A DNA stretch of 64,000 nt from an uncultured Gemmatimonadales bacterium (GCA_963826065.1 CAWGVP010000006.1:213961-277960); one strand, 5' to 3'. Numbered from the stretch's first letter, positions 2,428 through 47,547 are shown. The notes: generated from the letters alone by a model not told the origin. Made by a program: numbers and translations.

Positions 2428-2467
2428 CATCGTGACATCGTGGCATCGTGGCATCGTGGCATCCTGA
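2428..2467 (+). repeat. 8-bp tandem repeat (CATCGTGG-like, 5 units) running into the REP arm
   Basis: catcgtga-catcgtgg-catcgtgg-catcgtgg-catcctga read directly. Confidence 0.9.
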
Positions 2468-2524
2468 GTGAAGCGAAGGAGCCATGACCCAGGGCATGCC
2501 TCCTTCGCCTCGCTCAGGATGACA
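2457..2524. repeat. REP-like inverted doublet (locus A)
   Basis: Left arm TGGCATCCTGAGTGAAGCGAAGGAG 2457-2481; right arm CTCCTTCGCCTCGCTCAGGATGACA 2500-2524; between convergent genes. Confidence 0.92.
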
Positions 2525-3185
2525 ACGGGCGCGCTCGGCCGTGTTTCACCACCTCCAGCAGATCGGCCGGCCGCTCCAGCCAATAGTCTGGCTCCGTCCC
2601 CTCCAGCTGATCCCGGCCGAACGGCCCCCAGAGCACCGCCGCGGTGCGCACCCCCGCCGCTCGGCCCGACCGCATATCGTGGATGCTATCCCCGACGTAG
2701 ACCGTGCCGCCCGGGTCGGCGCCGAGCAGGCGCACCGCCTTCTCGACCGGCTCGGGATGCGGCTTCGGATTCTGCACCTCGTCGGCGCAGACCAGCACGT
2801 CCATGAGCGGTTCGAGCCGGGCCAGCGCCAACCCCCGGATCGCGCCCGTGCGGTTCTTGCTCGTCACCAGTCCGGTGGCGAGCCCGTCGGCCTTGAGCCG
2901 CTGCACCACGTCGACCACGCCCGGATAGACGGTCACCATCCGGTCGTGGTGCTTCAGGTTGTACTCCCGGTAAGTGGCGATGAGGGCGTCGAGCATTCCA
3001 GCGGTGCCGTCGCAGGCGGCGAATTGCGCGGTGAGTGGCGTGCCCACGCCCTCGAGCCATTCCGCGTCGCTGCGTGCAGGGAGGCCATGGGCCTCCAGGG
3101 TGTGGTGATAGCTGTCCAGGATCAGGCGGACCGAATCGATGAGGGTCCCATCCAGGTCGAAGAGCACGGTGTCGATCTTTGCCAT
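2514..3185 (-). CDS. HAD-IA family hydrolase (PpaX/phosphoglycolate phosphatase-like)
   Basis: FDLDGTL, VTSK, KPHPEP and VGDSIHD motifs; ATG at 3185; stop codon lies inside the REP arm. Confidence 0.9.
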   Translation of the reverse strand: MAKIDTVLFDLDGTLIDSVRLILDSYHHTLEAHGLPARSDAEWLEGVGTPLTAQFAACDGTAGMLDALIATYREYNLKHHDRMVTVYPGVVDVVQRLKADGLATGLVTSKNRTGAIRGLALARLEPLMDVLVCADEVQNPKPHPEPVEKAVRLLGADPGGTVYVGDSIHDMRSGRAAGVRTAAVLWGPFGRDQLEGTEPDYWLERPADLLEVVKHGRARPLSS

Positions 3186-3256
3186 GTCGGGAAATGTATT
3201 GAGACTGGCCGCCGCTTGCGGAGCGTTGCCGCGATCGGCCGCCGGCGGACGACTGA

Positions 3257-9246: not shown

Positions 9247-9294
9247 ACCAGACACTCATCGCCATCGTTGCGTCACCCATCCATCGGAGGGCGT

Positions 9295-10805: not shown

Positions 10806-10822
10806 GGGCCCGCCGCTGCCGG

Positions 10823-29194: not shown

Positions 29195-31039
29195 GTGCTC
29201 CGCCTGGCGATCGCCCAGCTTCGGCCCCACAAGGGCGCCTATGACGAGAACCTCTGCCGGCTGGGGGCCTTCTTCCGGGAGGCCGCCGGCTGGGCCGAGC
29301 CGCCTGACCTGGTGGTGGCACCGGAAGCGGCACTCACCGGCTACTTCCTCGAGGGCGGAGTCCGCGACTTGGCCGTCTCCGCCGATCAGCTGCTCGACGA
29401 CCTCTCCGCTCAGCACCGGGATGCCCAGGCACCGCCGCTCGACGTCGCCCTGGGCTTCTACGAGGTCCATCAGAACCGGCTCTACAATTCTGCCCTCTAT
29501 GCCCGTCTCGGCGGCCCCGAGGCGGGCATCCGCCACGTGCACCGGAAGGTGTTTCTCCCGACCTACGGGGTGTTCGACGAGGAGCGCTTCGTGGAGGCAG
29601 GCCGGAGCGTGCAGGCGTTCGACACCGCCTGGGGCCGGGCGGCGATTCTGATCTGCGAGGATGCCTGGCATTCCTTCACGCCGATGCTCGCGGCCCTCGA
29701 CGGCGCCCAGCTCATCATCGTGCCGAGCGCGAGCCCGGCGCGCGGCCCCGTTCCGGGCGACGATTCCGGCGCGGGCCGGCCGGCGAGCCTCGGCCGCTGG
29801 AGCCGGATCATCCAGGACATCGCGGGCGAGCACGGCGTCTACGTCGCGCTGGCGCAGTTGGTGGGTTTCGAGGGGGGCAAGGCGTTCCCGGGGGGCTCGA
29901 TCGTGGCGACGCCGCGGGGCGAGCTGATGGCGCAGGGCCCCATCTTTCAGGAAGCCCTGATCCCGGCGACGCTCGACTTCGAGGAGATCACCCGGGCGCG
30001 GACCGACTTGCCGCTGCTGGCGGACCTGGAGATGCGGCTGCCGCATCTGCTGGGCTCGCTGCATGCGGCGAGGCGGTCGGGGTCGGGGAAGGGATATGGT
30101 GGCAGCGGGGCAGCGGAGGGCGGAACCGGGGTTGTTGCGCCGGGTGTGGGTAATGCTGGTGGCAGGGCCGGTAGGAAGGTGAAGAAGCGTGTCACCCTGA
30201 GCTCAGCGAAGGGGCCGACGTCCGACCCGCTCGCCATCGACCCGGAGCTGACTTCCCACTGGCTGGTGGAATTCCTCCGCGACGAGGTTCAGCGCCGCCG
30301 GGGTTTCGAGAAGGTCGTCATCGGGCTCTCCGGCGGCGTGGACAGCTCGCTGGTTGCGTACCTCGCAGCGGGGGCCCTCGGCGCGGAGAACGTCATCGGC
30401 GTCAGGATGCCGTATCGGACCTCGAGCCCGGAGAGTCTGGAACACGCCCAGCTGGTGATCGACGCGCTCGGCATCCAGGCCAGGACGGTGGACATCAGCG
30501 CGGCGGTTGACGGGCTGGCCGCCGCGATCGGCGGCGTGAGCGAGCCGGGACGCCTGGGCAACATCATGGCCCGGGCACGCATGATCACGCTGTTCGACAT
30601 CTCGGCCGCCGAGCGGGCGCTGCCGGTCGGCACCGGCAACAAGACCGAGCGGCTGCTCGGCTACTTCACCTGGCACGCGGACGACTCGCCGCCGGTGAAC
30701 CCGATCGGCGACCTCTTCAAGACCCAGGTCTGGACCCTCGCCCGGCACGTGAAGGTGCCCGACGTGATCGTCTCCAAGCCGGCCAGCGCGGATCTCATCG
30801 AGGGACAGACCGACGAGGGCGACTTCGGCATCTCCTACCCCCGGGCCGACGCGATCCTGCACTGGATCCTGCTCGGCTATCGCAACGAGGAGATCGTCCC
30901 GCTCGGCTTCACGGAGAATGAGCTGGCGCTGGTCCGCCGCCGGCTGGATTCCACCCACTGGAAACGCCGGCTTCCCACCGTCGCCATGCTCAGCGCGACG
31001 GCGATCGGGGAGTACTACCTGAGACCGGTCGATTATTGA
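29195..31039 (+). CDS. nadE: Glutamine-dependent NAD+ synthetase (CN-hydrolase + NAD synthase domains)
   Basis: PE, HRKVFLPTY, ICEDAW; SGGVDS, NIMARARM, GTGNKTE, KPASADL; GTG start 29195. Confidence 0.95.
   Translation: MLRLAIAQLRPHKGAYDENLCRLGAFFREAAGWAEPPDLVVAPEAALTGYFLEGGVRDLAVSADQLLDDLSAQHRDAQAPPLDVALGFYEVHQNRLYNSALYARLGGPEAGIRHVHRKVFLPTYGVFDEERFVEAGRSVQAFDTAWGRAAILICEDAWHSFTPMLAALDGAQLIIVPSASPARGPVPGDDSGAGRPASLGRWSRIIQDIAGEHGVYVALAQLVGFEGGKAFPGGSIVATPRGELMAQGPIFQEALIPATLDFEEITRARTDLPLLADLEMRLPHLLGSLHAARRSGSGKGYGGSGAAEGGTGVVAPGVGNAGGRAGRKVKKRVTLSSAKGPTSDPLAIDPELTSHWLVEFLRDEVQRRRGFEKVVIGLSGGVDSSLVAYLAAGALGAENVIGVRMPYRTSSPESLEHAQLVIDALGIQARTVDISAAVDGLAAAIGGVSEPGRLGNIMARARMITLFDISAAERALPVGTGNKTERLLGYFTWHADDSPPVNPIGDLFKTQVWTLARHVKVPDVIVSKPASADLIEGQTDEGDFGISYPRADAILHWILLGYRNEEIVPLGFTENELALVRRRLDSTHWKRRLPTVAMLSATAIGEYYLRPVDY
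30190..30216 (+). repeat. Single REP-like arm inside the nadE interdomain linker (locus B)
   Basis: TGTCACCCTGAGCTCAGCGAAGGGGCC differs from the arm at 36864 only in the loop; translated as VTLSSAKGP. Confidence 0.85.
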
Positions 31040-35490: not shown

Positions 35491-35907
35491 ATGAAAGCTT
35501 CGGAAGCGATGGTACCCGATCCGCACGTCGCGGTGGCGGGCGCGATGGCCAGCGAGGTGGCGATCATGCTCAAGACCCGCAACATCTCGGTGGTGCCGGT
35601 GGTCGACGATCACCGGACCCGCCGGTTCCTCGGCACGTTGAGCGACCGCGATCTGGTCACGCGCTGCCTGGCGGAGGGGAAGCACCCCTGGCACACCAGG
35701 GTCGATACGCTGATGCGGACCAACTCCCCGGTGGTCCAGCCGGACCAGGAGCTCGACGGATACCGGATCCGCATGGACCTCGACCCCAACGAGTCCCACC
35801 TTCGGCCGACGATCACCGTGGTGGACGGGGACCGGCGCGTGGTAGGCTTCATCAGCCACCCGGAGCTGGTAGCCGGGATCGAGATCGTCTGGGGGGACCA
35901 TGCCTGA
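35491..35907 (+). CDS. CBS domain protein
   Basis: VPVVDD...GTLSDRDLV; second degenerate CBS repeat. Confidence 0.82.
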   Translation: MKASEAMVPDPHVAVAGAMASEVAIMLKTRNISVVPVVDDHRTRRFLGTLSDRDLVTRCLAEGKHPWHTRVDTLMRTNSPVVQPDQELDGYRIRMDLDPNESHLRPTITVVDGDRRVVGFISHPELVAGIEIVWGDHA

Positions 35908-36325
35908 CTTGAAGCTCTTCACGCTCGAGGAGGCGGAGCGCACGCTGCCGCTGGTGCGGCGGGTGGTGCAGGATCTCACCGCCGAGTATCCGGTGTGGCG
36001 GGCCGCGGTCGCGCGCTTCGAGCTTCTGACCGGGGGCGCGCGCGCCGACTGGGGCGAGACCGGTGAGCTGCTCGCCGCGCGGGAAGACGTCACCCTCCAC
36101 GCCGACCGGATCAACCGCTACCTCCAGGAGCTCGAGGGCGTGGGCTGCGTGTTCAAGGGGTTCGACGCCGGCCTGGTGGATTTCTATTCACTGCGGGAGG
36201 ATCGGCCGATCTTCCTCTGCTGGAAGCTGGGTGAGGAGCGCATCAGCCACTGGCACGAGATCGACGCGGGATTCTCCGGACGGCAGCCGATCGACGGCGC
36301 GATCCTCTCCGCGATGTCGTCGTGA
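35900..36325 (+). CDS. DUF2203 family protein
   Basis: FTLEEA...LP, GLVDF, LCWKLGE..I.HWH...GF.GRQPI. Confidence 0.88.
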   Translation: MPDLKLFTLEEAERTLPLVRRVVQDLTAEYPVWRAAVARFELLTGGARADWGETGELLAAREDVTLHADRINRYLQELEGVGCVFKGFDAGLVDFYSLREDRPIFLCWKLGEERISHWHEIDAGFSGRQPIDGAILSAMSS

Positions 36326-36780
36326 CCCGCCTCTGGGTCCTGCTGCACATCGTCGGCTTCACGCTATGGATCGGCGGCGGGCTCGCCTCGATGGTGGCGG
36401 GCATCGTGTCCAGGCGCGAGGAGCGGGGCGGGCTCGGAGCGGTGGTGCGGTCGCAGGCGGCTGTGCAGCGGCTGCTGGTGGCCCCCGGGGCGCTGCTCGC
36501 GGTGCTGTCGGGCCTGATGCTGACCTTCGCGCGGACGGGTGGCTCGGGCGGTCAGATCGGGTTCAGCTTCTGGCTGGTTCTGATGCAGGGCGCGGGGCTT
36601 CTCGGGGCCCTGGTCGTGCTGCTCGTCGGGCTGCCGACGGCGTCCAAGCTCGCGCGGATCGATCCGGCCGGGCAGCACGCGGCGTACTTCGACGAGCTTC
36701 GGCAGCGACAGCGGGTCACGTCGTCCATCGCGGGGGTGCTGGCGCTCGCGGCGCTGGTCGGGGGGGCGATGCTGGCGTAG
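36322..36780 (+). CDS. Four-TM membrane protein (DUF2269-like)
   Basis: LHIVG..LWIGG, four hydrophobic segments, GTGA coupling. Confidence 0.75.
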   Translation: MTRLWVLLHIVGFTLWIGGGLASMVAGIVSRREERGGLGAVVRSQAAVQRLLVAPGALLAVLSGLMLTFARTGGSGGQIGFSFWLVLMQGAGLLGALVVLLVGLPTASKLARIDPAGQHAAYFDELRQRQRVTSSIAGVLALAALVGGAMLA

Positions 36781-36797
36781 GGGGTGGGGTGGTGGGG

Positions 36798-36896
36798 GGC
36801 ATTGGCCCCTTCGCTTCGCTCAGGGTGACACGGGATGCCAGGGGAGTCGTGACAGCATGGACGTGTCACCCTGAGCGAAGCGAAGGGGCCAATGCC
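36798..36896. repeat. Perfect 35-bp inverted repeat of two REP-like arms (locus C, tags facing inward)
   Basis: GGCATTGGCCCCTTCGCTTCGCTCAGGGTGACACG 36798-36832 is the exact reverse complement of 36862-36896. Confidence 0.95.
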
Positions 36897-37168
36897 AGGT
36901 CCAGCCACCTCGGATTCTGACTCTCGATCAGCTCGATCTTCCGCATCCGTCTCCAGCCTTTGAGCTGTTTCTCCCGCCGGATCGCGTCCAGGACGTCCCC
37001 CGTCCGCTCAACGAACACCAGGCGGAAGATCTCGTGCCGGTACGCATGGTCATCCGGGGCGATGCCGGCACGATGCTCGGCGACCCGCCTGGCGAGGTCG
37101 TTGGTGACACCGACGTAGAGCTCGCGGGACCGACTGGCCAGGATGTAGACGAAGTAGTCCCGGGGCAT
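36866..37168 (-). CDS. Stand-alone GIY-YIG nuclease (YhbQ/UPF0213-like)
   Basis: YFVYILAS...LYVGVTNDLARRVAEH...AIRREKQLKGWRR..KI.LIE..NP.W.DL. Confidence 0.93.
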   Translation of the reverse strand: MPRDYFVYILASRSRELYVGVTNDLARRVAEHRAGIAPDDHAYRHEIFRLVFVERTGDVLDAIRREKQLKGWRRMRKIELIESQNPRWLDLALAPSLRSG

Positions 37169-37214
37169 TCGGGACCATTGCGGGGATCCGTCAAAGGAGA
37201 CTCAAGCGGGGTTA

Positions 37215-37242
37215 TGGCCCCTTCGCTGCGCTCAGGGTGACA
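37215..37242 (-). repeat. REP-like arm upstream of the GIY-YIG gene (locus C, third arm)
   Basis: Minus strand reads TGTCACCCTGAGCGCAGCGAAGGGGCCA. Confidence 0.92.
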
Positions 37243-37927
37243 ATGTCCCGGCCATGCCGCGGGTCCGGCGCCCCATCCGGCACGCCGCCCGGACCGGGCA
37301 CTCCCCGCACCGCGCTACTCTCGCCGTGCACACCAGCGCGCCGAGTTCCATGATGGCCTGATTGAACTCCCAGGCGCGCTTCCCCTGTCGCGGCACGATC
37401 AGCCCCGCGGTTTCCCAGATCCGCCGCGGCGCGACGGGCCGGGACGGGTGGTGGAACGCCCGGCGAATCACCCGAGCGACGTTGGTGTCCACCGCCGGCG
37501 TGGCCCGCTCGAAGGCGAAGCACGCCACCGCGCCCGCGGTATACCGGCCGATTCCCGGCAGCCGCGCCAGCACCGCGGGGTCGTCCGGCACGGTGCCGCC
37601 GTGTTCCCCCACGACGGTCTGCGCCAGCCGGTGCAGGTTCGCCGCCCGGCGATAATACCCGAGCCCCTCCCAGCTCTCCCTCACCATCGCCGGGGGCGCC
37701 GCCGCCAGCGCCTCGATGGACGGATAGCGCTCGAGAAACCGGTGATAATAGGCCTCGACCCGGGACACCTGGGTCTGCTGAAGCATGAATTCCGAGACCA
37801 CGATGTGGTACGGATCGCGGGTCCGGCGCCAGGGAAGGTCACGGCCGTGGCGGCGGAACCAGCGCAGCAGGCGCCGACGGAACGCCGACGTCTGGAGTGT
37901 GCGGCATGCCCTAGACTTACGCGGCAT
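37232..37927 (-). CDS. mutY: A/G-specific adenine glycosylase, short form (HhH-GPD + 4Fe-4S, no C-terminal NUDIX-like domain)
   Basis: RDLPWR, VSEFMLQQTQV, WEGLGYYRRA, LPGIGRYTA, VDTNV, CX6CX2CX5C. Confidence 0.88.
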   Translation of the reverse strand: MPRKSRACRTLQTSAFRRRLLRWFRRHGRDLPWRRTRDPYHIVVSEFMLQQTQVSRVEAYYHRFLERYPSIEALAAAPPAMVRESWEGLGYYRRAANLHRLAQTVVGEHGGTVPDDPAVLARLPGIGRYTAGAVACFAFERATPAVDTNVARVIRRAFHHPSRPVAPRRIWETAGLIVPRQGKRAWEFNQAIMELGALVCTARVARCGECPVRAACRMGRRTRGMAGTLSP

Positions 37928-37983
37928 GGGGGGCGAAGATACGTCCGGTCGACCCCAGGCGCTATCGGACAACTGACACAAAC

Positions 37984-38769
37984 ATGGACGCCCAGACACT
38001 CGATCTCCGCCGCTTCGTCGGCCGCTGGACGCTCAACGCCATGTCGCACGTCGGCCGGGTGTCCCTCATGGTGTGGGACGCCATCCGGAGCTTGAGCGAG
38101 TGGCGGGTGTGGTTCCCCCGGACCATGACCGAGGCGTGGAACATCGGGGTCGGCAGCCTCTTCATCGTCCTGCTCATCTCCGGCTTCGCCGGCGCCGTCA
38201 CGGCGCTCCAGGCTCGCTACCAGTTCACCGGCACCATCCCCATCTACTATCTGGCCGGCGTGGTGGTCGAATCCATCGTGCTCGAGCTCGGCCCCGTGCT
38301 CACCGGGCTGGTGCTGGCGGGCCGCATCGGCGCGCGCTACGCGGCGGAGCTGGGCACGATGCGGGTCACCGAGCAGATCGACGCCCTGGAGAGCCTGGGG
38401 CGCTCGCCGGGATCGCATCTCATCGTGCCCCGGGTGCTGGCCGGATTCATCATGATCCCGGTCCTCGTCATCCTGGCCGACGTGATGGGGATCTTCGCGG
38501 GCTGGTTCTCGATGACGATGGTGCTCCCGATCACCAACGAGGATTTCACCTACGGCGCCCGCTCCTTCTGGCGCCCCTTCGACGCCACCTACTCGGTCAT
38601 CAAGGCCTTCTTCTTCGCCGGCTCGATCACCATCATCGCCTGCTACATGGGCTTCAACACCCAGCAGGGCGCCGAAGGTGTCGGCCGGGCGACCACGGGG
38701 GCGGTGGTGAGCAGCTCGGTGCTGATCCTGCTGCTCGACGTGCTCCTCGCCAACCTGCTGCTTGCCTGA
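37984..38769 (+). CDS. mlaE: MlaE family ABC permease
   Basis: ELGPVL...AGRIGA..AAELGTMRVTEQIDALE, GAEGVGRATT. Confidence 0.93.
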   Translation: MDAQTLDLRRFVGRWTLNAMSHVGRVSLMVWDAIRSLSEWRVWFPRTMTEAWNIGVGSLFIVLLISGFAGAVTALQARYQFTGTIPIYYLAGVVVESIVLELGPVLTGLVLAGRIGARYAAELGTMRVTEQIDALESLGRSPGSHLIVPRVLAGFIMIPVLVILADVMGIFAGWFSMTMVLPITNEDFTYGARSFWRPFDATYSVIKAFFFAGSITIIACYMGFNTQQGAEGVGRATTGAVVSSSVLILLLDVLLANLLLA

Positions 38770-39521
38770 TGATCGTTCTCCGCGACGTCCGCAAGCGATT
38801 CGGCAGCCAGGTGGTGCTCGATGGCGTCGATCTCGACGTGCAGGAGGGCGAGACCCTGGCGCTGCTCGGTCCCTCCGGTACGGGGAAGAGCGTCCTGCTC
38901 AAGCACATCATCGGGCTGATCAGGCCGGACACCGGCACCGTCGTGGTGGACGATCTGGACGTCGGCAAGCTCAAGCGGAAGGAGCTCGCGGAGCTGCGCT
39001 CGCGGATCGGCTACGTGTTCCAGAACGGCGCGCTCTTCGACTCCATGAACGTGTTCGAGAACGTCCGGCTGGGTATCACCGACGGGGAGAAGTACCGGGA
39101 TGAGGATTACGCCCGGGAGCGGGTCGCCGGGTGCCTGAAGCTGGTGAACCTCGCGCCCGACGTGATGGCGAAGTTCCCGGCGGAGCTGTCTGGCGGGATG
39201 CGGAAGCGGGTGGGGATCGCGCGGGCGATCGCCGGGAGCCCCAAGTATCTCCTCTACGACGAGCCCACCTCGGGCCTCGATCCGGTCAACGCCGACGTGA
39301 TCGACAGCCTGGTCAAGCGGCTCGACAACGAGCTGGGCGTCACCAGCGTGATGGTGACCCACGACGTACGGGGCGCCTTCCGCACCGCCGACCGGCTGGC
39401 CCTGCTCACCGGCGGGAAGATCGTGCAGCAGGGCACCCAGGAGGAGTTCCTGAAGTCGCGCAATCCCAAGGTCCAGGAGTTTCTGGAGCGCGATTTCCCG
39501 GACGCCACTTTCGCCGCATGA
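38769..39521 (+). CDS. mlaF: MlaF family ABC ATPase
   Basis: GPSGTGKS, FQNGALFDSM, LSGGMRKR, YDEPTSGLDP. Confidence 0.93.
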   Translation: MIVLRDVRKRFGSQVVLDGVDLDVQEGETLALLGPSGTGKSVLLKHIIGLIRPDTGTVVVDDLDVGKLKRKELAELRSRIGYVFQNGALFDSMNVFENVRLGITDGEKYRDEDYARERVAGCLKLVNLAPDVMAKFPAELSGGMRKRVGIARAIAGSPKYLLYDEPTSGLDPVNADVIDSLVKRLDNELGVTSVMVTHDVRGAFRTADRLALLTGGKIVQQGTQEEFLKSRNPKVQEFLERDFPDATFAA

Positions 39522-39528
39522 GAGCGAC

Positions 39529-40440
39529 ATGGATCTGAGTTACAAGAGGGAAGTCACCGTCGGCACGCTCGTGATCCTCGCGGTGGTGCTGTTCATCGTG
39601 GGGTCCAGCTGGCTGAGTGGCCGCTCGGTCGGGGCCGACGAGGACGACTTCTGGAAGATTCAGTTCAAGAGCGCCGGCAACCTCAAGGCGAGCTCGGTGG
39701 TGAAGATCTCCGGCGTCGCGGTGGGAAAGGTGGAGCGGATCCGCCTGGAGGACGTGGGAAGAGTGATCGTGTCGGTGACGCTGCCGGAGAAGATCGTGCC
39801 CAAGGTGGACGCCACGGCCAAGATCGTGGCGGTCGGGTTCGTGGGCGACGCGGCCATCGAGCTCGATCCCGGCAAGGCGTCCCAGAACCTGTCGCGCCAG
39901 CGCGTGATCATCGGCGCGGAGGAGGGCGGCCTGTCGGACCTGGCCCAGTCGCTCGGCGACCGGGCGGACAGCGTTCTTCTCGGCGCGCAGCAGATCGTGA
40001 ACAAGCGTACCGCGGACGAGCTGTACGCCACGCTCACGGCGCTCCAGGGCACGCTGAAGGCGGCGGAGCGGACGATGGGGGTCTACGGCGATCCCAACAA
40101 GGGGCCGACCGCCCAGCTCACCCGGACGATGGCGTCGCTGGAGCAGCTCACCACCCGGCTCGACAGCACCCTCGCGAATCCGGCGCTCTCCCGCACGCTC
40201 AACCGCGCGGACACGCTCACCGCGAACCTGGCGAGCATGACCGCGCAGCTCACCTCGACCGGCGCGCGGCTCGACACCCTGCTGCTGGGGATGAACCAGG
40301 GCCGCGGTACTCTCGGCAAGTTCGCGACGGATACCGGGTTCTACGGTGACATCCGGAAGCTGTCGCAGTCCATGCAGGAGCTGCTCGACGAGCTGAAGAA
40401 GCATCCGGGGAAGATCCCGGTGACGGTGAAGCTGTTCTAG
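39529..40440 (+). CDS. mlaD: MlaD/MCE family protein
   Basis: N-terminal TM, GNLK.SSVVKISGVAVGKV MCE motif, helical tail, GTLGK. Confidence 0.88.
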   Translation: MDLSYKREVTVGTLVILAVVLFIVGSSWLSGRSVGADEDDFWKIQFKSAGNLKASSVVKISGVAVGKVERIRLEDVGRVIVSVTLPEKIVPKVDATAKIVAVGFVGDAAIELDPGKASQNLSRQRVIIGAEEGGLSDLAQSLGDRADSVLLGAQQIVNKRTADELYATLTALQGTLKAAERTMGVYGDPNKGPTAQLTRTMASLEQLTTRLDSTLANPALSRTLNRADTLTANLASMTAQLTSTGARLDTLLLGMNQGRGTLGKFATDTGFYGDIRKLSQSMQELLDELKKHPGKIPVTVKLF

Positions 40441-40452
40441 CACGGTGTCACC

Positions 40453-41364
40453 CTGCTGACCGCCACGTTTCTCGGGACCGGCGCCGCCACGCCGACGATC
40501 GACCGCAACGTCGCGGGGCTCGCCGTCCAGCGCGAAGGAGAGACCATTCTCTTCGACTGCGGCGAGGGCAACCAGCGGCAGATGATGCGGTACGGGGTCG
40601 GCTTTTCGTTCACCGAGATCTTCTTCAGCCACTACCACGCCGACCATATCCTGGGCGTGACCGGGCTGCTGCGGACCATGGGACTTCAGGACCGCTCCGC
40701 CGCCGTCACCCTCTACGGCCCGCGTGGCGCCTCGCGCATCCTCGGCGCGGCCATCTCCCTGGGCATCGAGCGCAACAAGTTTCCGGTCGAGATCCGTGAG
40801 ATCCGCCCGGGCGACCGGCTGGCCCGCGAGGAGTACGACATCGTGGTGTTCGAGACCGAGCACCGGCCCGACACGGTGGGGTACGCCCTGGTGGAGCATA
40901 CCCGGCTCGGCAGGTTCCATCCCGAGCGGGCGCGGGAGCTGGGCGTGCCGGAGGGACCGCTCTGGGGCCGGCTGCACAAGGGTGAGACCATCGTGCTCGA
41001 CGACGGCCGCCGCATCGCGCCGGCCGACCTGGTGGGCTCCCCCCGCCGCGGGCGCACGCTGGTGTACACCGGCGACACCCGCCCCAGCCTCGCGGTCGTC
41101 GAGGCGGCGCGGGGCGCGGATCTCCTGATCCACGAGGCCACCTTCGGCAGCGACGAGCTGGAGCGGGCCAAGGAGACCGGACACTCCACGGCGGCGGAGG
41201 CCGCACGGGTCGCCGTCGAAGCCGGGGTCGGCCGGCTGGTGCTCACCCACATCAGCCCTCGCTATACCCGGGATGCGCCCGAGCTGCTGGCGGAGGCGCG
41301 GGCCGTGTTTCCCGAGACGATCGTCGCTCGGGACGGGCTGGTGGTGGACGTGCCGTTCGCGTAG
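40453..41364 (+). CDS. rnz: Ribonuclease Z (non-canonical or uncertain start)
   Basis: TFLGTG..P...RN, FDCGEG, SHYHADH, GDTRP, HEAT, GHST, THIS; no in-frame ATG/GTG/TTG before the first motif. Confidence 0.9.
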   Translation: MLTATFLGTGAATPTIDRNVAGLAVQREGETILFDCGEGNQRQMMRYGVGFSFTEIFFSHYHADHILGVTGLLRTMGLQDRSAAVTLYGPRGASRILGAAISLGIERNKFPVEIREIRPGDRLAREEYDIVVFETEHRPDTVGYALVEHTRLGRFHPERARELGVPEGPLWGRLHKGETIVLDDGRRIAPADLVGSPRRGRTLVYTGDTRPSLAVVEAARGADLLIHEATFGSDELERAKETGHSTAAEAARVAVEAGVGRLVLTHISPRYTRDAPELLAEARAVFPETIVARDGLVVDVPFA

Positions 41365-41398
41365 TAGGGGGCATTCGGTCGTGTGTCATCGGCTCGTG

Positions 41399-41465
41399 TG
41401 TCATCCTGAGCGCAGCGAAGGAGGCCATGCAGGGCTTCGGCTCCTTCGCTTCGCTCAGGATGACA
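41399..41465. repeat. REP-like inverted doublet (locus D)
   Basis: TGTCATCCTGAGCGCAGCGAAGGAG 41399-41423 and CTCCTTCGCTTCGCTCAGGATGACA 41441-41465. Confidence 0.95.
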
Positions 41466-41486
41466 TCACATTACCGGGAGGCTCCG

Positions 41487-42116
41487 ATGCCGATGCGTTC
41501 GGCCGGCTACGAGATCGCGCTTCTGGTGTCGCTCGCCGCCGTGCTGGCCTGGTCGGGCATCGCGCCCCACGATCGCTTCACCTGGATGCTCGAAGTGGCC
41601 CCGGTGCTGATCGGCGTGCCCATCCTGATCTACGTCTGGCCCGCCTTTCGCTTGACCCGCCTGGTGTACACCCTGCTCTGGATTCACGCGATCATCCTGA
41701 TGGTCGGCGGCAAGTACACCTACGCCGAGGTGCCGCTCGGCTTCTGGCTCCAGGACATGTTCGGCTTCGCGCGCAATCACTACGACCGGATCGGCCACTT
41801 CGCCCAGGGTTTCATCCCGGCGATGCTCGCCCGCGAGATCCTGATTCGCCGGTCACCGCTGCGGGGGAGCCGCTGGCTGCCGTTCGTGGTGGTGTGCTTC
41901 TGCCTGGCATTCAGTGCACTGTACGAGCTGATCGAGTTCTGGACGGCGCTGGCCACGGGCGAGGCGGCGGAGGCGTTTCTGGGGACTCAGGGCGACGTGT
42001 GGGACACCCAATGGGATATGCAGATGGCGTTGGTGGGAGCGGTGGTCGCCCTGGCGACCCTGTCCCGCATTCATGACGGCGAGCTGACTCGCGACGGTCC
42101 GCCCTCGGCGGCGTGA
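41487..42116 (+). CDS. DUF2238 (YjdF-like) membrane protein
   Basis: DRFTWMLE, YTYAEVP, RNHYDRIGH, FLGTQGDVWDTQWDM. Confidence 0.92.
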   Translation: MPMRSAGYEIALLVSLAAVLAWSGIAPHDRFTWMLEVAPVLIGVPILIYVWPAFRLTRLVYTLLWIHAIILMVGGKYTYAEVPLGFWLQDMFGFARNHYDRIGHFAQGFIPAMLAREILIRRSPLRGSRWLPFVVVCFCLAFSALYELIEFWTALATGEAAEAFLGTQGDVWDTQWDMQMALVGAVVALATLSRIHDGELTRDGPPSAA

Positions 42117-43537
42117 ACGATGCGGCGCAGCATTCCCGCGAAGATCAGTCGGTGGACCCCCCAGAGCCCATACCAGTAGAGCAGCCCTCCCACCCCCACC
42201 GGATCGAAGAGTGCCGTCTGGCGAATCAGGCTCCCGGCTCCTTCGGGGGTGACCTCGAACTGCAGCCAGGCACGACCGGGAAGACGCATCTCCGCCGCCA
42301 GTCTCAGGAGTCTGTCGGGCTCGACTCCTTCTACGCGCCAGAAATCCAGTGTATCGCCCACCTCCACTGCTTCCGGGTCACGACGGCCGCGCCGCAATCC
42401 GGGCCCGCCCACGGCGATGTCGAGCAGTCCGCGCAAGCGCCAGAGAGGGTTCCCGAAGTACCAGCCGGCGTCGCCACCGATCCGCGCGATGGGGCGGAAG
42501 GCCTGGTGAGGAGGCCGATCCACCCATGCCGTCCGCGAGTCGACCCGGCGTGATCCGAACCGGACGCCCCCCCACCCCCTGGGCGCGCGCTGAGACGAGA
42601 GTGCGTCGGACCAACGGGTGGCGGCGAATCCCAGGTCCTCATTGACCAGCGCCCGGGCCAGCGCTTCGCGGATCCCCCTGGGCCGAACGCTGAAATCGCG
42701 CGTGGCACGGTCGTCCCGAACCACGGTCTCGTTGCGCACGCCGTCGATCAGCTCTCGGCCTACCCGCGCGTACACCGGCGACACCAGTGCCAGCCACAGG
42801 CTGGAGAGCCGGGGGGTGAGGAGCGGGACCGGGAGCATCACACGTCGCAGCCCCCTGAGCCTAGCGTACTCCCGCATGAGGTCGCCGTAGGAGACCCGGT
42901 CGGGGCCACCGATCTCGTAGACGGCACTCTCGCCGGCGGGCAGGTCGAGCGCGGCGAGCAGGTAGGCCACGAGGTCCTCGATACCGATGGGTTGGGTGGG
43001 CGTGTCCACCCAGCTCGGGGTCACCATCGCCGGAAGCTTCTCAACCAGTGCGCGAACCAGCTCGAAGGAAAGGCTTCCCGATCCGATCACGATCGAGGCC
43101 CGGAACTCGACGGTGGGAACACCGGACTGGCGGAGGATCCTGCCCACCTCCTGCCGGCTGGCGAGGTGCCGGGACAGTCGCTCCCCCTGGCCCAGGCCGC
43201 CGAGGTAGACGATGCGGCTCACTTGGGCATCTCGTGCCGCGCGAGCGAACGACTCGGCGCCCTTCCGGTCGTTCTCCGCATAGTCGCGGGAAGAAGCCAT
43301 GGAGTGGATCAGATAGTACGCGGTATGCACGCCGCGAAGCGCCGCTGCCAGCGAGTCGGGGTCGTGCACGTCTCCCGCGACCACCTCTGTGGATGGTGCG
43401 CCCCGCGAGCGCAGGTAGTCCGGCCGGCGGGCCATGCAGCGGAGCGGACGCCGGTCGGCCTCGAGTGCTCGGCGGAGCCGCCCACCGACGTAGCCGCTGG
43501 CACCCGTGAGCAGGGTAAGGCCGGCAGCGGCCCTCAT
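42071..43537 (-). CDS. NAD(P)-binding SDR-like protein with DUF2867 (YbjT-like)
   Basis: TGASGYVG, HLASRQEV, GSGSLSFE, DFWRVE, AEMRLPGRAWL. Confidence 0.9.
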   Translation of the reverse strand: MRAAAGLTLLTGASGYVGGRLRRALEADRRPLRCMARRPDYLRSRGAPSTEVVAGDVHDPDSLAAALRGVHTAYYLIHSMASSRDYAENDRKGAESFARAARDAQVSRIVYLGGLGQGERLSRHLASRQEVGRILRQSGVPTVEFRASIVIGSGSLSFELVRALVEKLPAMVTPSWVDTPTQPIGIEDLVAYLLAALDLPAGESAVYEIGGPDRVSYGDLMREYARLRGLRRVMLPVPLLTPRLSSLWLALVSPVYARVGRELIDGVRNETVVRDDRATRDFSVRPRGIREALARALVNEDLGFAATRWSDALSSQRAPRGWGGVRFGSRRVDSRTAWVDRPPHQAFRPIARIGGDAGWYFGNPLWRLRGLLDIAVGGPGLRRGRRDPEAVEVGDTLDFWRVEGVEPDRLLRLAAEMRLPGRAWLQFEVTPEGAGSLIRQTALFDPVGVGGLLYWYGLWGVHRLIFAGMLRRIVHAAEGGPSRVSSPS

Positions 43538-44520
43538 GCGGCCGCCTCGGTGGCCAGCCGGCGGAGCAGGGCTCGGAGCTCGGCCAACGACTCCATCACC
43601 AGCGCACCTTCCGCCGCCGCCTCCGTGCGGATCTCGGACGCGGCGGCGCCTCCCACGAGCAGCGGGACTTCCTCCGGAAGAGCCGTGCGGATCTCCCGCA
43701 GGGCTGCCAGCAGATCAGGCGCTTCAGTCACATAGACGGCGCTGATCGCGACGGCTCGTGCGGCTGTCACCCGGGCCGCGGTCACCAGGTCCGCCACCGG
43801 CAGGTCAGCCCCGAGATACGTCACACCCCACCCCTCGGCGGCGGCGCTCGCCGCCACCATCAGTGCTCCCAGCTCGTGCACCTGGGTCGGTGGCGTGGCC
43901 ACCACGAGTCGCGGAGCGCCGTCTTTCACCTCGTACACCCGGAAGAGCCAGCCCAGCACCCGACGAAAGACGGCCGTCGCCATGTGCTCCTGCCCAACCG
44001 AGACCGTCCGCTCGGCCCAGCCGTGCCCGATCCGCGCGAGTGTGGGTGCTACGACCTCGTCGATGAAGACCGGCACGCCGAGAGTGACCGCGGCGCGCTC
44101 GAGCACCGCCTGGAGCTCGACTGCGTCGAGCCGAGCCGTCGCCTGCATGGCCGCGGCAATCGAGTCCTGGACTTTCCCTGCGCGCACCTGGCCGGCCTCA
44201 TCCATCCCAGCCACGTGGCCTTCCATCAAAGCAGCGCGGTCCAGCTCGGCGGCGGTCTCTTCGTCGAGCCGGGCGAGCTGGGCGAGCGGGAGTGAGGCGA
44301 TCCGGCGGATGGCGTGACCCCGGTCGGTGAGCCGCCGGAGCCGGACGAGGCGCTCGATGTCCAGATCGGAGTAGAGGCGTTGCCCTCCCTCGGTCCGGGT
44401 CGGGCTCACCACGCCATACCGCCGCTCCCAGGCTCGGAGCACGTGTGGCGACAGCCCTGTTCGCACCGAAACGAGGCGGACGGGGTAGCGAGGTGTCTGG
44501 GCATCCACAGGGTTCGTCAC
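43534..44520 (-). CDS. MerR-family regulator with cobalamin-binding domain (CarH/LitR-like)
   Basis: LRAWERRYG..P.RTEGGQRLY; W-x9-EH (WAERTVSVGQEH); QVHELG...YLGADLP. Confidence 0.9.
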   Translation of the reverse strand: MTNPVDAQTPRYPVRLVSVRTGLSPHVLRAWERRYGVVSPTRTEGGQRLYSDLDIERLVRLRRLTDRGHAIRRIASLPLAQLARLDEETAAELDRAALMEGHVAGMDEAGQVRAGKVQDSIAAAMQATARLDAVELQAVLERAAVTLGVPVFIDEVVAPTLARIGHGWAERTVSVGQEHMATAVFRRVLGWLFRVYEVKDGAPRLVVATPPTQVHELGALMVAASAAAEGWGVTYLGADLPVADLVTAARVTAARAVAISAVYVTEAPDLLAALREIRTALPEEVPLLVGGAAASEIRTEAAAEGALVMESLAELRALLRRLATEAAA

Positions 44521-44528
44521 GGCATCAC

Positions 44529-44623
44529 AGTATAAGATTGTCTAGGTATTGTCAAGTTAACTACTTAGACGAAACCTTGACAATCGGCAATTTTGGTTTA
44601 GTTTGTTGGACAGGCATTAGACA
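44529..44623. promoter_or_regulatory. Divergent promoter region with three pairs of 11-bp-spaced TnGACA repeats (putative CarH-type operator)
   Basis: Minus strand TTGACA 44555 and TAGACA 44544; plus strand TAGACG 44566 and TTGACA 44577; TGGACA 44607 and TAGACA 44618; candidate -10 boxes TATACT (minus) and TAGTTT (plus). Confidence 0.7.
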
Positions 44624-44650
44624 ACGCACACACCCACCTGTGAGGATGAT

Positions 44651-44869
44651 ATGAAAAAGCTGGACGTAGCCGCCGCCGTGCTTCTGGTCGTAGGCGGCCT
44701 GAACTGGGGCGTGGTAGGGGTGACCGGCTCGGATCTCGTGGGGACGATCTTCGGCAACCTGAGTCCGGTGAGCCGTGCGATCTACCTCCTCGTCGGCGTT
44801 GCCGCGCTGTATCAGGCGGTCCAGTGGAAGGCCATCCAGCATCGCTGGCAGCCCGCCTTCGCCAAATAG
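44651..44869 (+). CDS. DUF378 family small membrane protein
   Basis: LLVVGGLNWG.VG...DLV..IFG...SRAIYLLVG. Confidence 0.9.
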   Translation: MKKLDVAAAVLLVVGGLNWGVVGVTGSDLVGTIFGNLSPVSRAIYLLVGVAALYQAVQWKAIQHRWQPAFAK

Positions 44870-44911
44870 GTCACCGGGAAGTTCCATAACCTCGACATCG
44901 AAGGTGCACTC

Positions 44912-45601
44912 ATGAAGCTGAATTTCCTGACACTGTTGCTCGCCGCGACCGCGATGACGGCCGCATGCGACGACGACGACAACACCGGACCGGAGGGCGA
45001 GGCGAGAGTACGCGTGGTGCACGCCTCCCCCGACGCCCCCGACGTGGACGTCCTGGTAGACGGTTCGCCGGTGCTGACCGACGTACCGTACCTCGCGACC
45101 TCGGACTATCTCGAGGTGGCGCCCGGCCCGCGGAACCTCAAGGTCAACGCGGCGGGGACTGCCACCTCGGTGATCGACGCGGACGTAAATCTGGTGGACG
45201 GGACCGACTACACCGTCATCGCCAGCGGACTGGCCGCCGAGATAGAGCCCCTCGTGCTGGAGGATGACAGCAGCGAGCCCGCCGAGGGCCTCGCCCGGGT
45301 TCGGGCGATCCATGGGGCAGCCAGCGCGCCGGCGGTGGACATCTACGTGACCGCACCAGACGCGGATCTCACCGCCGAGAATCCGGCCCTCACCAACATC
45401 GTGCTGGGCGACGTAGCCGACTACATCGAGGCGCCGGCGGGCGATTACCAGGTGCGGGTCACCACAACCGGTACGAAGACCGTGGTGATCGACAGCGGCA
45501 CGCTGACCCTGGAGAGCGGGCAGGTCCGAACGGCGATCGCGGTCGACGCACCGGGAGGCGGAGCGCCGTTCGACCTGCTGATCCTCGAGGATCTGAACTA
45601 A
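44912..45601 (+). CDS. DUF4397 lipoprotein
   Basis: Lipobox TAAC; repeated VRVVHASPDAPDVDV / VRAIHGAASAPAVDIY. Confidence 0.88.
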   Translation: MKLNFLTLLLAATAMTAACDDDDNTGPEGEARVRVVHASPDAPDVDVLVDGSPVLTDVPYLATSDYLEVAPGPRNLKVNAAGTATSVIDADVNLVDGTDYTVIASGLAAEIEPLVLEDDSSEPAEGLARVRAIHGAASAPAVDIYVTAPDADLTAENPALTNIVLGDVADYIEAPAGDYQVRVTTTGTKTVVIDSGTLTLESGQVRTAIAVDAPGGGAPFDLLILEDLN

Positions 45602-45624
45602 TGATCACATACGGGAGCACGACA

Positions 45625-46200
45625 ATGAGAAGGATCCGTACCGGGGCTGCCGCTTTCTCCGGACTATTCCTCTTCGGCATCGCTTCCACCGCCCAGGCGC
45701 AGTGGTCCGAGCGGGGGGCCACGATCGAGGCGCGAGGCGGGCTCAACGTTCCGACGTTCGATATCTCCGATGCCGTGGATGCGGGGCCGAGCTTCGGAGT
45801 GGGCGCCGCGGTGCGGTTCGCGCCGAAGGTGTGGCTGATGGGTGACGTGGACCTCGGCTTCCACTCGGGGGCCGAAGTCGGTGGCCTGGCAGAGGGTCCG
45901 GACGTGAAGGTCTATCACTACGTCGCCAAGCTGGGCTACGAGCTGCTCTCCGAAGGGCAGTCGCCATGGTCCGTCATCGTGAACGCCGGAGCCGGCGCCC
46001 TGACGTTCGATGTGGACAACGCCGGATCGAACACCTATCCGGCGATCAACGTCGGGGCCAAGATCGCCTATCGGCTGAGCCCGAGGGTACACCTGCTGCT
46101 CAGCCCCCAGGGCGACATCGCCTTCACCAAGGACGACGAAGTGGGGACGACCAACGCCTGGGTCTGGCCCTTCACGGCGGGTATTCGGGTCGGACTGTAG
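45625..46200 (+). CDS. Outer-membrane beta-barrel protein
   Basis: Signal peptide (AQA), amphipathic strands, C-terminal PFTAGIRVGL; RBS GGGAG. Confidence 0.78.
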   Translation: MRRIRTGAAAFSGLFLFGIASTAQAQWSERGATIEARGGLNVPTFDISDAVDAGPSFGVGAAVRFAPKVWLMGDVDLGFHSGAEVGGLAEGPDVKVYHYVAKLGYELLSEGQSPWSVIVNAGAGALTFDVDNAGSNTYPAINVGAKIAYRLSPRVHLLLSPQGDIAFTKDDEVGTTNAWVWPFTAGIRVGL

Positions 46201-46259
46201 TTACCCGGCATCCGCAGCAGGCTTGGCACCGAATGCGACGGCGACTACCATGCAGCCGA

Positions 46260-47450
46260 ATGCTTCGCTTCGCGCTCGGTGCCCTATCGCTCATCGTGTA
46301 CTCGGCCACCGGGTGCGGAGACTCTCCGCGCACGGTGGCCGCGGTGCGTGACTCCACTCCCACCGCGCCCGAGCCTCCAAAACCCAAGGTCTGGGAGCCA
46401 CGACCGGTGGTAGCGCCTCGTGCCACCTCCGCGGACAGTCTCACCGCCGACACGACCGCGGCGGATTCCCTCGCCGACACGACTGCACTCGCGCGCGACA
46501 CCGTCCCGGCCCGCCCCCGCGCGCGGGGCCCCCGACCGTTCGTGCTGAGCCCGGCCGACAGTGCCAAGTGGCCGGTGAAGGCGGCCGAGCCGTTGCCGGG
46601 ATCGCTGCTCCCGGATCACCGCATCATCGCGTACTACGGAAACCCGCGCTCCACCCGGATGGGCATCCTGGGGCAGGTCCCGCCGGACTCGATGCTGCCG
46701 CGGCTGGAGAAGGTCGCGATGCACTGGGCGCTGGCCGACCCGGAGCGGAAGGTGATGCCGGCGCTCCACCTGATCGTGACCGTGGCGCAGGGCAAGCCCG
46801 GGGCAGGGAACAAGTACCGGCTTCGCATGGGCGACAGCCTCATCAACCTGGTCTCGTCGTGGGCGGAGGAGCGGGGCTGGATCGTGTTCCTGGACATCCA
46901 GACGGGACACAGCACGGTGGAGGCGGAAATCGAGCCGCTGATTCCGTTTCTGAAGCGCCCCTACGTCCACCTGGCGCTGGATCCCGAGTTCGCCATGAAA
47001 GCCGGGGGAGTGCCCGGCAGGCGGATCGGCACGCTCGACGCGTCGGATGTGAACCACGCCATCGACGTGCTCGGGAAAGTCGTGACCGAGCACAAGCTGC
47101 CGCCCAAGGTACTGGTCGTGCACCGCTTCACCCGGAGGATGCTGACCAACACCGACAGCATCCGCCTGGACCCGCGGGTGCAGGTGGTGATCCAGATGGA
47201 CGGATTCGGGGCGCCCTATCTGAAGCAGGATGCCTACCGCTTCTGGATCTCGCCGCATCCGGTGCAGTACACCGGGTTCAAGCTGTTCTATAAGAACGAC
47301 CGCGACCAGCGGACCAAGGTGCCGGGTTTCGAGCCGAGCTGCGACCGGGTGACGTACGAGCTGGTGGGGTGCGGGGACGACGGGCTGATGACGCCGGAGC
47401 AGGTGATCGGCGGGCTGTATCCGGTGCCGCTGTACATACAGTACCAGTGA
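46260..47450 (+). CDS. Conserved hypothetical lipoprotein
   Basis: Lipobox ATGC, P/T-rich linker, IAYYGNP...MGILG, HLALDPEF, DGFG, GFKLFY; start uncertain. Confidence 0.78.
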   Translation: MLRFALGALSLIVYSATGCGDSPRTVAAVRDSTPTAPEPPKPKVWEPRPVVAPRATSADSLTADTTAADSLADTTALARDTVPARPRARGPRPFVLSPADSAKWPVKAAEPLPGSLLPDHRIIAYYGNPRSTRMGILGQVPPDSMLPRLEKVAMHWALADPERKVMPALHLIVTVAQGKPGAGNKYRLRMGDSLINLVSSWAEERGWIVFLDIQTGHSTVEAEIEPLIPFLKRPYVHLALDPEFAMKAGGVPGRRIGTLDASDVNHAIDVLGKVVTEHKLPPKVLVVHRFTRRMLTNTDSIRLDPRVQVVIQMDGFGAPYLKQDAYRFWISPHPVQYTGFKLFYKNDRDQRTKVPGFEPSCDRVTYELVGCGDDGLMTPEQVIGGLYPVPLYIQYQ

Positions 47451-47547
47451 AGCTCGTTGTCGTGTATCACCCTGAACGAAGTGAAGGGGGCCATCTCCGA
47501 GATGGCCCCCTTCGCTTCGCTCAGGGTGATACACGACAACGAGCTTC
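47449..47547. repeat. 99-bp near-perfect palindrome containing two REP-like arms (locus E)
   Basis: 49-bp arms around centre 47498 with two mismatches; between convergent genes. Confidence 0.95.

Follow-up and report, generated by a model that had tools for sequence, protein, structure and literature searches.

A Nuclease Gene between Inverted Hairpin Repeats

The window analyzed here is a stretch of 64,000 nucleotides (C6:213961-277960) from the assembly of an uncultured, Gemmatimonadales-like bacterium, which comprises 4.37 Mb in 8 contigs at 69% G+C and is 93% complete. It carries the gene of a small GIY-YIG nuclease, resembling ssn genes (36866..37168, minus strand), enclosed by two inverted copies of a short tagged hairpin, hereafter called an arm, which recurs at further loci of the window and in hundreds of copies across the genome. 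Each arm consists of a 5' tag, (T/C)GTCA, followed by Y-CC-Y, GA, GC, GNA, GC, GA and R-GG-R, with a GCGNAGC core flanked by two G·A/A·G mismatches. We consider it likely that the arms are recognition hairpins of Ssn-family nucleases, as a variant of the repeats known as NTS and SRM, and that the gene-less dimers of arms derive from a unit of arm, gene and arm.

The nuclease gene encodes a protein of 100 amino acids with a single domain, its sole Pfam match being PF01541 (E 3.8e-12, residues 5-76). It lies in a cassette of 379 bp (36864-37242) bounded by two arms with the outer stem CCCT/AGGG (class B), one at 36864..36887 on the plus strand with the loop GAA and one at 37219..37242 on the minus strand with the loop GCA; the latter reads forward on the coding strand of the nuclease, with its tag 74 bp upstream of the start codon. 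Beyond the 3' end of the gene stands another class B arm with the loop GAA (36807..36830, minus strand), arranged tag-to-tag with the arm at 36864-36887 and separated from it by 33 bp. The genome contains two such long inverted pairs, of 379 and 365 bp, and each encloses a GIY-YIG open reading frame (ORF) of about 100 codons. In the second cassette (C5:514919-515283) two arms with the outer stem TCCC/GGGA (class C), which share the rarer loop GTA, surround a paralogue of about 104 amino acids, likewise with GIY-YIG as its only Pfam domain. Both ORFs run into their downstream arm, which encodes the C-terminal residues PSLRSG of the proteins and, through the complement of its tag, provides the TGA stop codon. 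A C terminus of the form ...SLRSG is found in 37 of 120 homologues listed from a public collection of proteins; the 36 closest account for 34 of these. Another 4 of the 120 carry near-variants (PSRRSG, PSLREG, PSLHSG). The source names of some homologues place the organism near Gemmatimonadales. The nearest solved structures to the window protein are the UPF0213 proteins 1zg2 and 1ywl, and NCBIfam returned no family for it. The neighboring genes of the cassette, which encode a DUF2203 protein and an HhH-GPD glycosylase, were not found beside nuclease homologues in 9 loci of relatives. A third small GIY-YIG match in the genome (C4:384790-384999) is without arms and continues into a longer ORF, and was set aside as probably belonging to a different family.

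A scan of the whole window with YCCTGARYNNNRYGAAGGR, allowing one mismatch, returned ten matches, whereas 100 dinucleotide-preserving shuffles averaged 0.11 and never gave more than 1. All ten coincide with arms that an earlier note on this DNA had placed at five loci (A to E). That note was also right in assigning the outer stem TCCT/AGGA (class A) to loci A and D and CCCT/AGGG to loci B, C and E, in describing both GA dinucleotides as invariant (10 of 10 arms) and in listing GAA, GAG, TCA and GCA as loop variants; its consensus tag TGTCA holds for most arms, the exceptions being TGGCA at 2457 and TATCA in both arms of locus E. A looser scan added just two matches, at 1767 and 38466, with three mismatches each, which look like chance since the genome-wide control at three mismatches gave 18 matches.

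The arms outside locus C, where the cassette lies, are arranged as follows. Dimer A (2457-2524, 68 bp) begins 49 bp past the stop codon of a sensor kinase gene ending at 2408, and its class A arms lie at 2457..2480 (plus strand, loop GAA, with an inner G·T wobble, GT...GC) and 2501..2524 (minus strand, loop GAG). Four 8-bp units, CATCGTGA once and then CATCGTGG three times, run into its left arm (2428-2459). Locus B is a single class B arm with the loop TCA (30190..30213, plus strand), translated in frame as VTLSSAKG within a NadE-like ORF of 659 codons (29060-31039, plus strand), where it occupies the linker between the CN_hydrolase (residues 48-314) and NAD_synthase (residues 402-639) domains. 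Dimer D (41399-41465, 67 bp) begins 35 bp past the stop codon of a gene ending at 41364 and consists of class A arms at 41399..41422 (plus strand, loop GCA) and 41442..41465 (minus strand, loop GAA); a 12-bp unit, TCGTGTGTCATC, recurs after 3 bp at the 5' edge of its left arm (41379-41405). Dimer E (47465-47531) lies between two convergent genes ending at 47450 and 47555. Of its class B arms, the right one (47508..47531, minus strand) has the usual inner G-C pair and the left one (47465..47488, plus strand) has A-T in its place (AC...GT). The earlier note had taken this for a double compensatory change that breaks the long palindrome. Both sides have indeed changed (47470-47488), but only one base pair is concerned (G-C to A-T) rather than two, and the long stem acquires just one A·C mismatch and one G·T wobble; despite the change, a stretch of 103 nt at the locus is predicted to fold as a single long hairpin (-60.4 kcal/mol). 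The palindrome continues for 17 nt past each arm, giving a near-perfect hairpin of 101 nt (47448-47548).

A Dispersed Repeat Family across the Genome

We defined the family genome-wide by the generalized arm NGTCAYCCYGARYNNNRYGARGGR with at most two mismatches, which gave 436 arms and 2 matches in the reversed-sequence control; with at most three mismatches the figures were 534 and 20. Three classes account for 374 of the 436 arms, namely class A with 151, class B with 102 and class C, which is absent from the window, with 121. The tags are TGTCA in 295 arms, CGTCA in 64, GGTCA in 32 and AGTCA in 14, and the tails read TCGG, GCCA or GGCC. While 353 arms are paired, 83 are single, and in 11 arms the tag pairs with an inverted copy of the tag to close a solo hairpin. 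We counted 184 inverted pairs with outward-facing tags, among them about 120 of 64-70 bp that belong to classes A and B (dimers of about 67 bp) and about 52 of 99-114 bp that belong to class C (dimers of about 108 bp) and have a longer conserved inner palindrome. This inner palindrome reads ATCGGCYCG..CATGAGAGTGAG.. followed by its complement, as for example at C2:70785-70881.

Contigs from four soil-metagenome runs (four studies), mapped to positions 35800-48000, pile up on the elements, and many end exactly at element edges (41398/41399, 41465, 36863, 37242, 47467 and 47529), as expected for a repeat common to many places and organisms. These ends fall at the outer edges and fix the extent of the repeat unit from tag to tag. 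No exact deletion of one element, as an empty site or an excision, was found among the 15 contig joints listed of 44 from these four runs; for one joint that leads from arm to arm over the nuclease gene (36889 to 37214), the simplest reading is another dimer matched in two pieces. Nor did the flanks of the dimers contain a target-site duplication, direct matches in the flanking 10 nt being at chance (mean 2.4 of 10). Inverted flank matches were scarcely higher than in the control (3.5 versus 2.9) and reached at least 8 of 10 bases in just 4 of 168 dimers, that of locus E included, and on these figures palindromic targets such as terminator stems were rejected as insertion sites. At C7:43022-44044 an ORF with an IS110-type DEDD domain (PF01548, E 1.5e-13) splits the right arm of a class B dimer; this IS110-type copy (L002:590-1543) may be damaged, as just the N-terminal domain was matched.

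Related Hairpins beside Homologues in Other Phyla

In Neisseria meningitidis the arrangement NTS-ssnA-NTS encodes SsnA, a GIY-YIG protein with one domain and 94 amino acids (cd10448), and the flanking repeat, of which there are hundreds of copies, carries the tag CGTCAT (Chenal et al., 2025, Nat Commun 16:2388, PMC11893778). The enzyme binds and cuts the repeat as single-stranded DNA only, not as double-stranded DNA or RNA, and the cut lies upstream of the tag by a few nucleotides; the three bases that precede the palindrome are important for cutting, the C that follows it for binding (PMC11893778). The wider repeat class was named SRM ("Ssn-related motif") and given a degenerate search sequence, and the 29 genomes named there as defining it include none from Gemmatimonadota, Acidobacteriota or Cyanobacteria (PMC11893778). 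The cassettes described above share two features with this system, a small single-domain GIY-YIG protein (100 and about 104 amino acids) and a gene flanked on both sides by inverted hairpin repeats (36864-37242 and C5:514919-515283).

We analyzed the best 80 of 598 confirmed homologue loci, which were drawn from contigs of one genome per species with a query alignment of 15 homologues. They span Gemmatimonadota, Acidobacteriota, Chloroflexota, Cyanobacteria, Deltaproteobacteria, and Alpha- and Betaproteobacteria, and also Bacteroidota-related groups, Ignavibacteria, Planctomycetota, Binatia, Saccharibacteria and Oscillospiraceae. A strict pattern with perfect pairing, N4-GA-N2-N3-N2'-GA-N4', matched 75 times in 35 of the 80 loci and once in reversed sequence, and nearly all of these matches bear the TGTCA tag, though the search did not require it. 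Prescribing GTCA and the GA..GA spacing alone gave 90 matches in 43 loci (control 6), of which 67 have all six pairs Watson-Crick, with at least ten different outer stems (TCCT, TTCT, CCCT, TCCC, TTCC, TGTT, TCTT, TGCT, TACT and CTCC) and with the inner pairs GC/GC, AC/GT, GT/AC and CC/GG. Arms with at least five of the six pairs were present in 33 of the 80 loci. Within 200 nt of the gene, 13 loci have a forward arm on the upstream side, 22 have a reverse arm on the downstream side and 10 have both, and downstream arms are predominantly reversed (33 versus 6).

The published SRM expression, for its part, gave 13 matches (control 1) beside the gene in 9 of the 80 loci, mostly from Alpha- and Betaproteobacteria, and these SRM-flanked homologues are 52-59% identical to the window protein, which ties the window gene indirectly to the Ssn system. 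At one locus (L062) a sequence that is almost the Neisseria NTS stands beside the homologue gene. At a locus of Granulicella rosea (L076), fully paired hairpins stand beside the homologue at about 1117 and 1549, with the 5' GA changed to TC and the 3' half kept; this form seems intermediate between the paired stems of canonical SRM and the GA-mismatch type.

The earlier note had classed the arms as REP-like (repetitive extragenic palindromic) and of the CGTC-tagged kind, which agrees with the predominance of TGTCA and CGTCA (295 and 64 of 436 arms) and with the arrangement of most arms in inverted dimers. REPs with CGTC or TGTC tags, among them dRS3 of Neisseria and RPE-4 and RPE-6 of Rickettsia, have stems that open A-T, T-A and occur as dimers, and the description by Di Nocera et al. 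links no transposase to them (Di Nocera et al., 2013, BMC Genomics 14:522, PMC3733652). The arms resemble them in the unpaired tag outside the stem, in the A-T, T-A stem start (63 of 92 distinct arms in the cross-phyla alignment described below), in the dimers and in occasional in-frame copies within genes, and for neither is a dedicated transposase known. They depart from the fully paired stem of 8-9 bp, the 4-5 nt loop and the CCA tail given there, having a 3-nt loop, two stem mismatches and a tail of ATC or GCC/GGCC; the same description names no partner enzyme (PMC3733652).

Another arrangement of this kind is that of REPINs and RAYTs, in which inverted dimers of tagged hairpins lie in hundreds of copies behind genes and also border an enzyme gene of low copy number (Bertels and Rainey, 2011; Nunvar et al., 2010). 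The arms share this build and position, and RAYT genes are likewise flanked by their own REPs, so that one might take the arms for classical REPs or REPINs moved by a RAYT (an IS200/IS605-type Y1 transposase), with a GIY-YIG gene lying between two of them by accident. In the REPIN-RAYT system, however, the enzyme is a Y1 HUH transposase and the tag is GTAG, not (T/C)GTCA. No match to Y1_Tnp (PF01797) was obtained in our 93%-complete genome by a search that finds it in 6 of 14 control genomes, and on this ground a RAYT/IS200 origin was rejected. Moreover, GIY-YIG homologues from many phyla have these hairpins beside them in a consistent orientation (33 of 80 loci), and CGTC/TGTC-tagged REPs appear without a linked transposase in the description cited above (PMC3733652). 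We find it hardly credible that the arms are RAYT-moved REPs with such an accidental neighbor.

Covariation and Structure of the Small Hairpin

Across the 436 arms of the genome, all six stem pairs are Watson-Crick in 368, both GA dinucleotides are kept in 421 and the heptamer GCGNAGC is exact in 363. The loop is GNA in 397 arms (GAA 151, GGA 148, GCA 80, GTA 18), its middle base being free. Three stem pairs covary. The pair beside the tag is T-A in 288 arms, C-G in 119 and G-C in 2, with 14 T·G and 5 C·A besides; the pair beside the first GA is T-A in 278 and C-G in 133; and the outer pair of the inner stem is G-C in 396 and A-T in 23, with 7 A·C and 5 G·T. The A-T variant of the inner pair occurs on all three stem backgrounds of the genome, mostly that of class B, and in several other phyla. 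Dimers that combine an A-T arm with a G-C arm number 17, and one further dimer combines A-T with G·T; no dimer has A-T in both arms. The two arms are identical in just 78 of 179 short dimers, and those around the nuclease genes keep the hairpin at a distance of more than 300 bp.

Across phyla, we aligned 101 arms (92 distinct) from 44 sources, that is 43 loci and the window, without requiring pairing; the alignment took only matches with enough flanking sequence and retained likely chance matches. Paired cells amounted to 83.9% versus 69.5% after shuffling, cells changed on both sides to 96 versus 25.8, and the covariation score to 0.426 versus 0.188, and in each case 0 of 500 shuffles reached the observed value. 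These shuffles ignore relatedness; slid controls, which keep it, scored 0.060-0.154. Across phyla, all but one of the seven pairs have changed on both sides, and the pair A6-T26, missing in classes A and B of the genome, is present in 63 of the 92 distinct arms. The covariation that the earlier note had described for the outer stem thus extends to three pairs within the genome and six of seven across phyla, and it is found in a larger set of copies.

Covariation might also arise if a few founders were copied as subfamilies, or if hairpin-templated repair fixed both sides, in either case without selection. As three classes make up 374 of the 436 arms in the genome, the T-A and C-G pairs there could come from two or three founding events, and the prevalence of the A-T variant on the class B background, together with shuffles that ignore relatedness, fits such an origin. 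Founder copying does not account equally well for at least ten fully paired outer stems and four inner pair types across phyla, accompanied by fixed GA, GNA and tag, nor for the distance between the observed score of 0.426 and the relatedness-preserving slid controls (0.060-0.154), nor for an A-T variant on all three stem backgrounds here and in several other phyla; hairpin-templated repair, in turn, would itself need the hairpin to form in vivo. We therefore regard an origin without selection as very unlikely. Selection on the small hairpin, as the earlier note had proposed, is supported by the single and solo arms, the arms spaced by more than 300 bp, the dimers that combine A-T with G-C and the covariation across phyla. 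Conservation is accordingly not confined to the long stem of the dimers, given 83 single arms, 11 solo hairpins and the A-T dimers.

Tandem G·A mismatches in a context such as that of the arms form sheared pairs. The core itself corresponds to d(GCGNAGC), in which two G-C pairs and a sheared G·A pair make an extraordinarily stable and nuclease-resistant DNA structure whose stability is not explained by conventional thermodynamic models (review, Chemistry 2026, PMC13037366). The earlier description of GC-GNA-GC as an unusually stable DNA mini-hairpin agrees with this review (PMC13037366). In the arms, the exact heptamer is frequent (363 of 436) and the variable base is the middle one of the loop, so that the fixed loop G and A with a free base between them fit the mini-hairpin. 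The structure is far less stable as RNA, and hairpins with a TTC loop are not nuclease resistant (PMC13037366); the confinement of the motif to the purine-rich strand, the opposite strand of which would form a TTC-type loop, is also in keeping with it. Known examples of the mini-hairpin come from oligonucleotides, from phage and replication origins and from the single-stranded promoter in phage N4, and the passages of the review that deal with it do not present it as the core of a dispersed bacterial repeat (PMC13037366).

Position Relative to Genes

The position of the elements was assessed with crude gene calls based on codon-position G+C, which cover about 74% of the genome. Of the 179 short dimers, 100 lie in tandem gaps, 51 in convergent gaps, 17 in divergent gaps and 11 inside called genes, and the 1628 background gaps comprise 1003 tandem, 277 convergent and 348 divergent ones. 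Convergent gaps are thus over-represented among the intergenic dimers (51 of 168 versus 277 of 1628) and divergent gaps under-represented (17 of 168 versus 348 of 1628). A gene 3' end lies on at least one side of 151 of the 179 dimers, at a median of 19 bp from the nearest upstream stop codon and within 30 bp of it in 104 of the 151.

These positions, and the high stability of the long hairpins (z -7 to -16.5), are what one would expect if the dimers were only RNA 3'-end hairpins, serving as terminators or mRNA stabilizers, in which the long stem alone is selected and the small hairpin is a by-product. Against this stands the scarcity of T-runs, since four or more T within 12 nt of the dimer end occur in just 9 of 179 dimers. 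A terminator scan flags no element of the window, and none of the three terminator-like sites it reports in 36000-48000 lies at an element. Intrinsic terminators were rejected for want of T-tails, and any role at RNA 3' ends would not be that of a classical terminator; with T-runs so rare and many arms single, the copies are unlikely to act solely as terminators. A long-stem model also fits poorly with 83 single arms of 436 and 11 closed solo hairpins, with the retention of the hairpin by the arms that enclose the nuclease gene at a spacing of more than 300 bp, and with the 17 dimers in which A-T in one arm weakens the long stem and preserves that arm's own hairpin. It gives no reason why the GA mismatches and the GNA loop are kept across phyla as the stems change, and the core is a DNA-specific structure (PMC13037366). 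We consider an exclusive role as RNA hairpins unlikely; the long hairpin may still have a secondary function at RNA 3' ends.

Rfam, at its gathering score, matched no arm and found only two tRNAs in the window (tRNA genes at 49493-49565 and 49604-49676), and in 36700-41600 it gave chance-level matches only (E about 0.7); a known RNA family was rejected for the arms on these results. None of the 20 listed runs that contain part of 35800-42300 (10 studies, mostly soil metagenomes) is an RNA record.

Distribution in the Phylum

The exact arm pattern was searched in 81 genomes of the phylum, this one included, and all backward-pattern controls gave 0. It is present in 359 copies in this genome and in 0-60 in the others, and matches are nearly confined to the same family, where they occur in 18 of 36 genomes, compared with 2 of 44 outside it. 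The genomes are related to one another and mostly drafts, with several nuclease homologues at contig ends, and the following counts are to be read accordingly. A homologue of the nuclease (E <= 1e-14) is found in 5 of the 10 genomes with at least five arms and in 9 of the 71 with fewer. One of these five, an unpublished genome of the same genus (G057), has 48 arms and a homologue that is itself flanked by arms (L085).

Relation to the Ssn/SRM System

The arms belong to a distinct, widely distributed hairpin variant of the known Ssn/SRM system and not to a new kind of element. Common to both are a single-domain GIY-YIG protein of about 95-100 amino acids, a gene between inverted hairpin repeats, a 5' (C/T)GTCA(T) tag outside the stem, and gene-less copies that number in the hundreds and often cluster around genes; a further likeness, seen in class C and most other phyla, is a stem that opens A-T, T-A and is followed by C. 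In contrast to the NTS, which has a fully paired stem of 8 bp and a 4-nt loop, the GA-type arm has two mismatches and a 3-nt loop, its copies here are mostly tight dimers of 67 or 108 bp, and classes A and B are without the ATC tail. The host phylum differs as well, Gemmatimonadota being without SRM enrichment in the published table (PMC11893778). We found none of GAGCGAAGCGA, GAGCGCAGCGA, GAGCGGAGCGA and CTGAGCG in the 14 supplementary files of that report; this negative applies to those files, and a logo among the figures may show the variant. A literature search gave no paper with the motif string and none that joins GIY-YIG with repetitive extragenic palindromic, and what it gave for GIY-YIG together with miniature inverted repeats included nothing on bacteria.

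Several observations weigh against assigning the arms to Ssn nucleases. The published SRM expression matches 0 of the 436 arms; its tag part, HGTCWY, fits and its stem part does not, a misfit due to the GA mismatches, and for this reason we file the arms as a variant rather than as canonical SRM. In the same table, Gemmatimonas aurantiaca has 44 SRM hits where 51 are expected and no ssnA, and Gemmatimonas species are without SRM enrichment (PMC11893778). The kinship of the window protein to Neisseria SsnA is indirect, resting on sequence likeness through the SRM-flanked homologues, and it is by analogy with SsnA that the window's nuclease would bind and cut this hairpin variant. Class A, the commonest with 151 arms, flanks no nuclease gene in this assembly. 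Across the phylum the link between arms and nuclease is real but loose, as half of the genomes with at least five arms have a homologue, and three of these ten (18, 24 and 18 arms) gave none even at E <= 1e-8. Much of the covariation within the genome reflects three propagated subfamilies, which supply most of it and leave few independent events. By nearest-neighbor DNA folding a lone arm reaches just -2 to -3 kcal/mol with z about 0, no better than its shuffles, and the two inner pairs of the A-T variant are not predicted, while the long dimer hairpin is far more stable, at -26 to -60 kcal/mol. Weak folding of the lone arm is nevertheless expected if the nearest-neighbor model lacks the mini-hairpin motif. 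Finally, neither a target-site duplication nor an empty site was found that would attest movement of the elements.

A Proposed Working of the Arms

The complete unit consists of an arm, the gene of the 100-amino-acid single-domain GIY-YIG nuclease and an inverted arm, and the 67-bp and 108-bp dimers are best regarded as gene-less versions of it, comparable to REPINs or miniature inverted-repeat transposable elements. By analogy with SsnA, the purine-rich strand of an arm may fold when DNA becomes single-stranded in replication, repair or uptake, and the nuclease could then bind the tag and hairpin and cut a few bases 5' of the tag. The earlier note had suggested that a protein recognizes the hairpin in single-stranded form; this gains weight from the arms that flank an Ssn-type gene and from homologues that bind single-stranded DNA only, and for the present variant it is carried over by analogy. 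We also infer that the nuclease takes part in spreading the dimers. In 38 of the 436 arms, compared with about 16 expected, the 40 nt upstream contain an extra GTCAYC, mostly 8-22 nt away. The reported cleavage by Ssn enzymes falls on the same side as such upstream duplications, and any causal connection is a mere guess.

A bolder and rather doubtful extension of the Ssn assignment would be that the GA-type arm constitutes a separate and old class of Ssn hairpin that crosses phyla, and that its mini-hairpin lets one strand fold out of a duplex or a long palindrome. The paralogues would then be matched to stem classes, the window gene to class B and the second gene to class C, and the dimers would be REPIN-like replicators that depend on the nuclease instead of a transposase. 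On this extended reading the superfamily of CGTC/TGTC-tagged REPs would gain the dedicated enzyme that it was said to lack.

Implications

If the arms are indeed Ssn recognition hairpins, the older "orphan" REPs with CGTC/TGTC tags are now linked to a candidate enzyme. The Ssn system, published mainly for Proteobacteria, would extend to Gemmatimonadota, Acidobacteriota, Chloroflexota, Cyanobacteria and others, and surveys probably undercount it, because the published pattern misses the GA-type hairpin. Natural variation among the arms can be read as a table of mutagenesis, in which the tag, both GA dinucleotides and the loop G and A are fixed, the stem pairs change jointly and the middle loop base is free, and which predicts the positions that the enzyme would read. 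Ssn enzymes are of interest as site-specific cutters of single-stranded DNA, and a class based on the mini-hairpin may offer new specificities.

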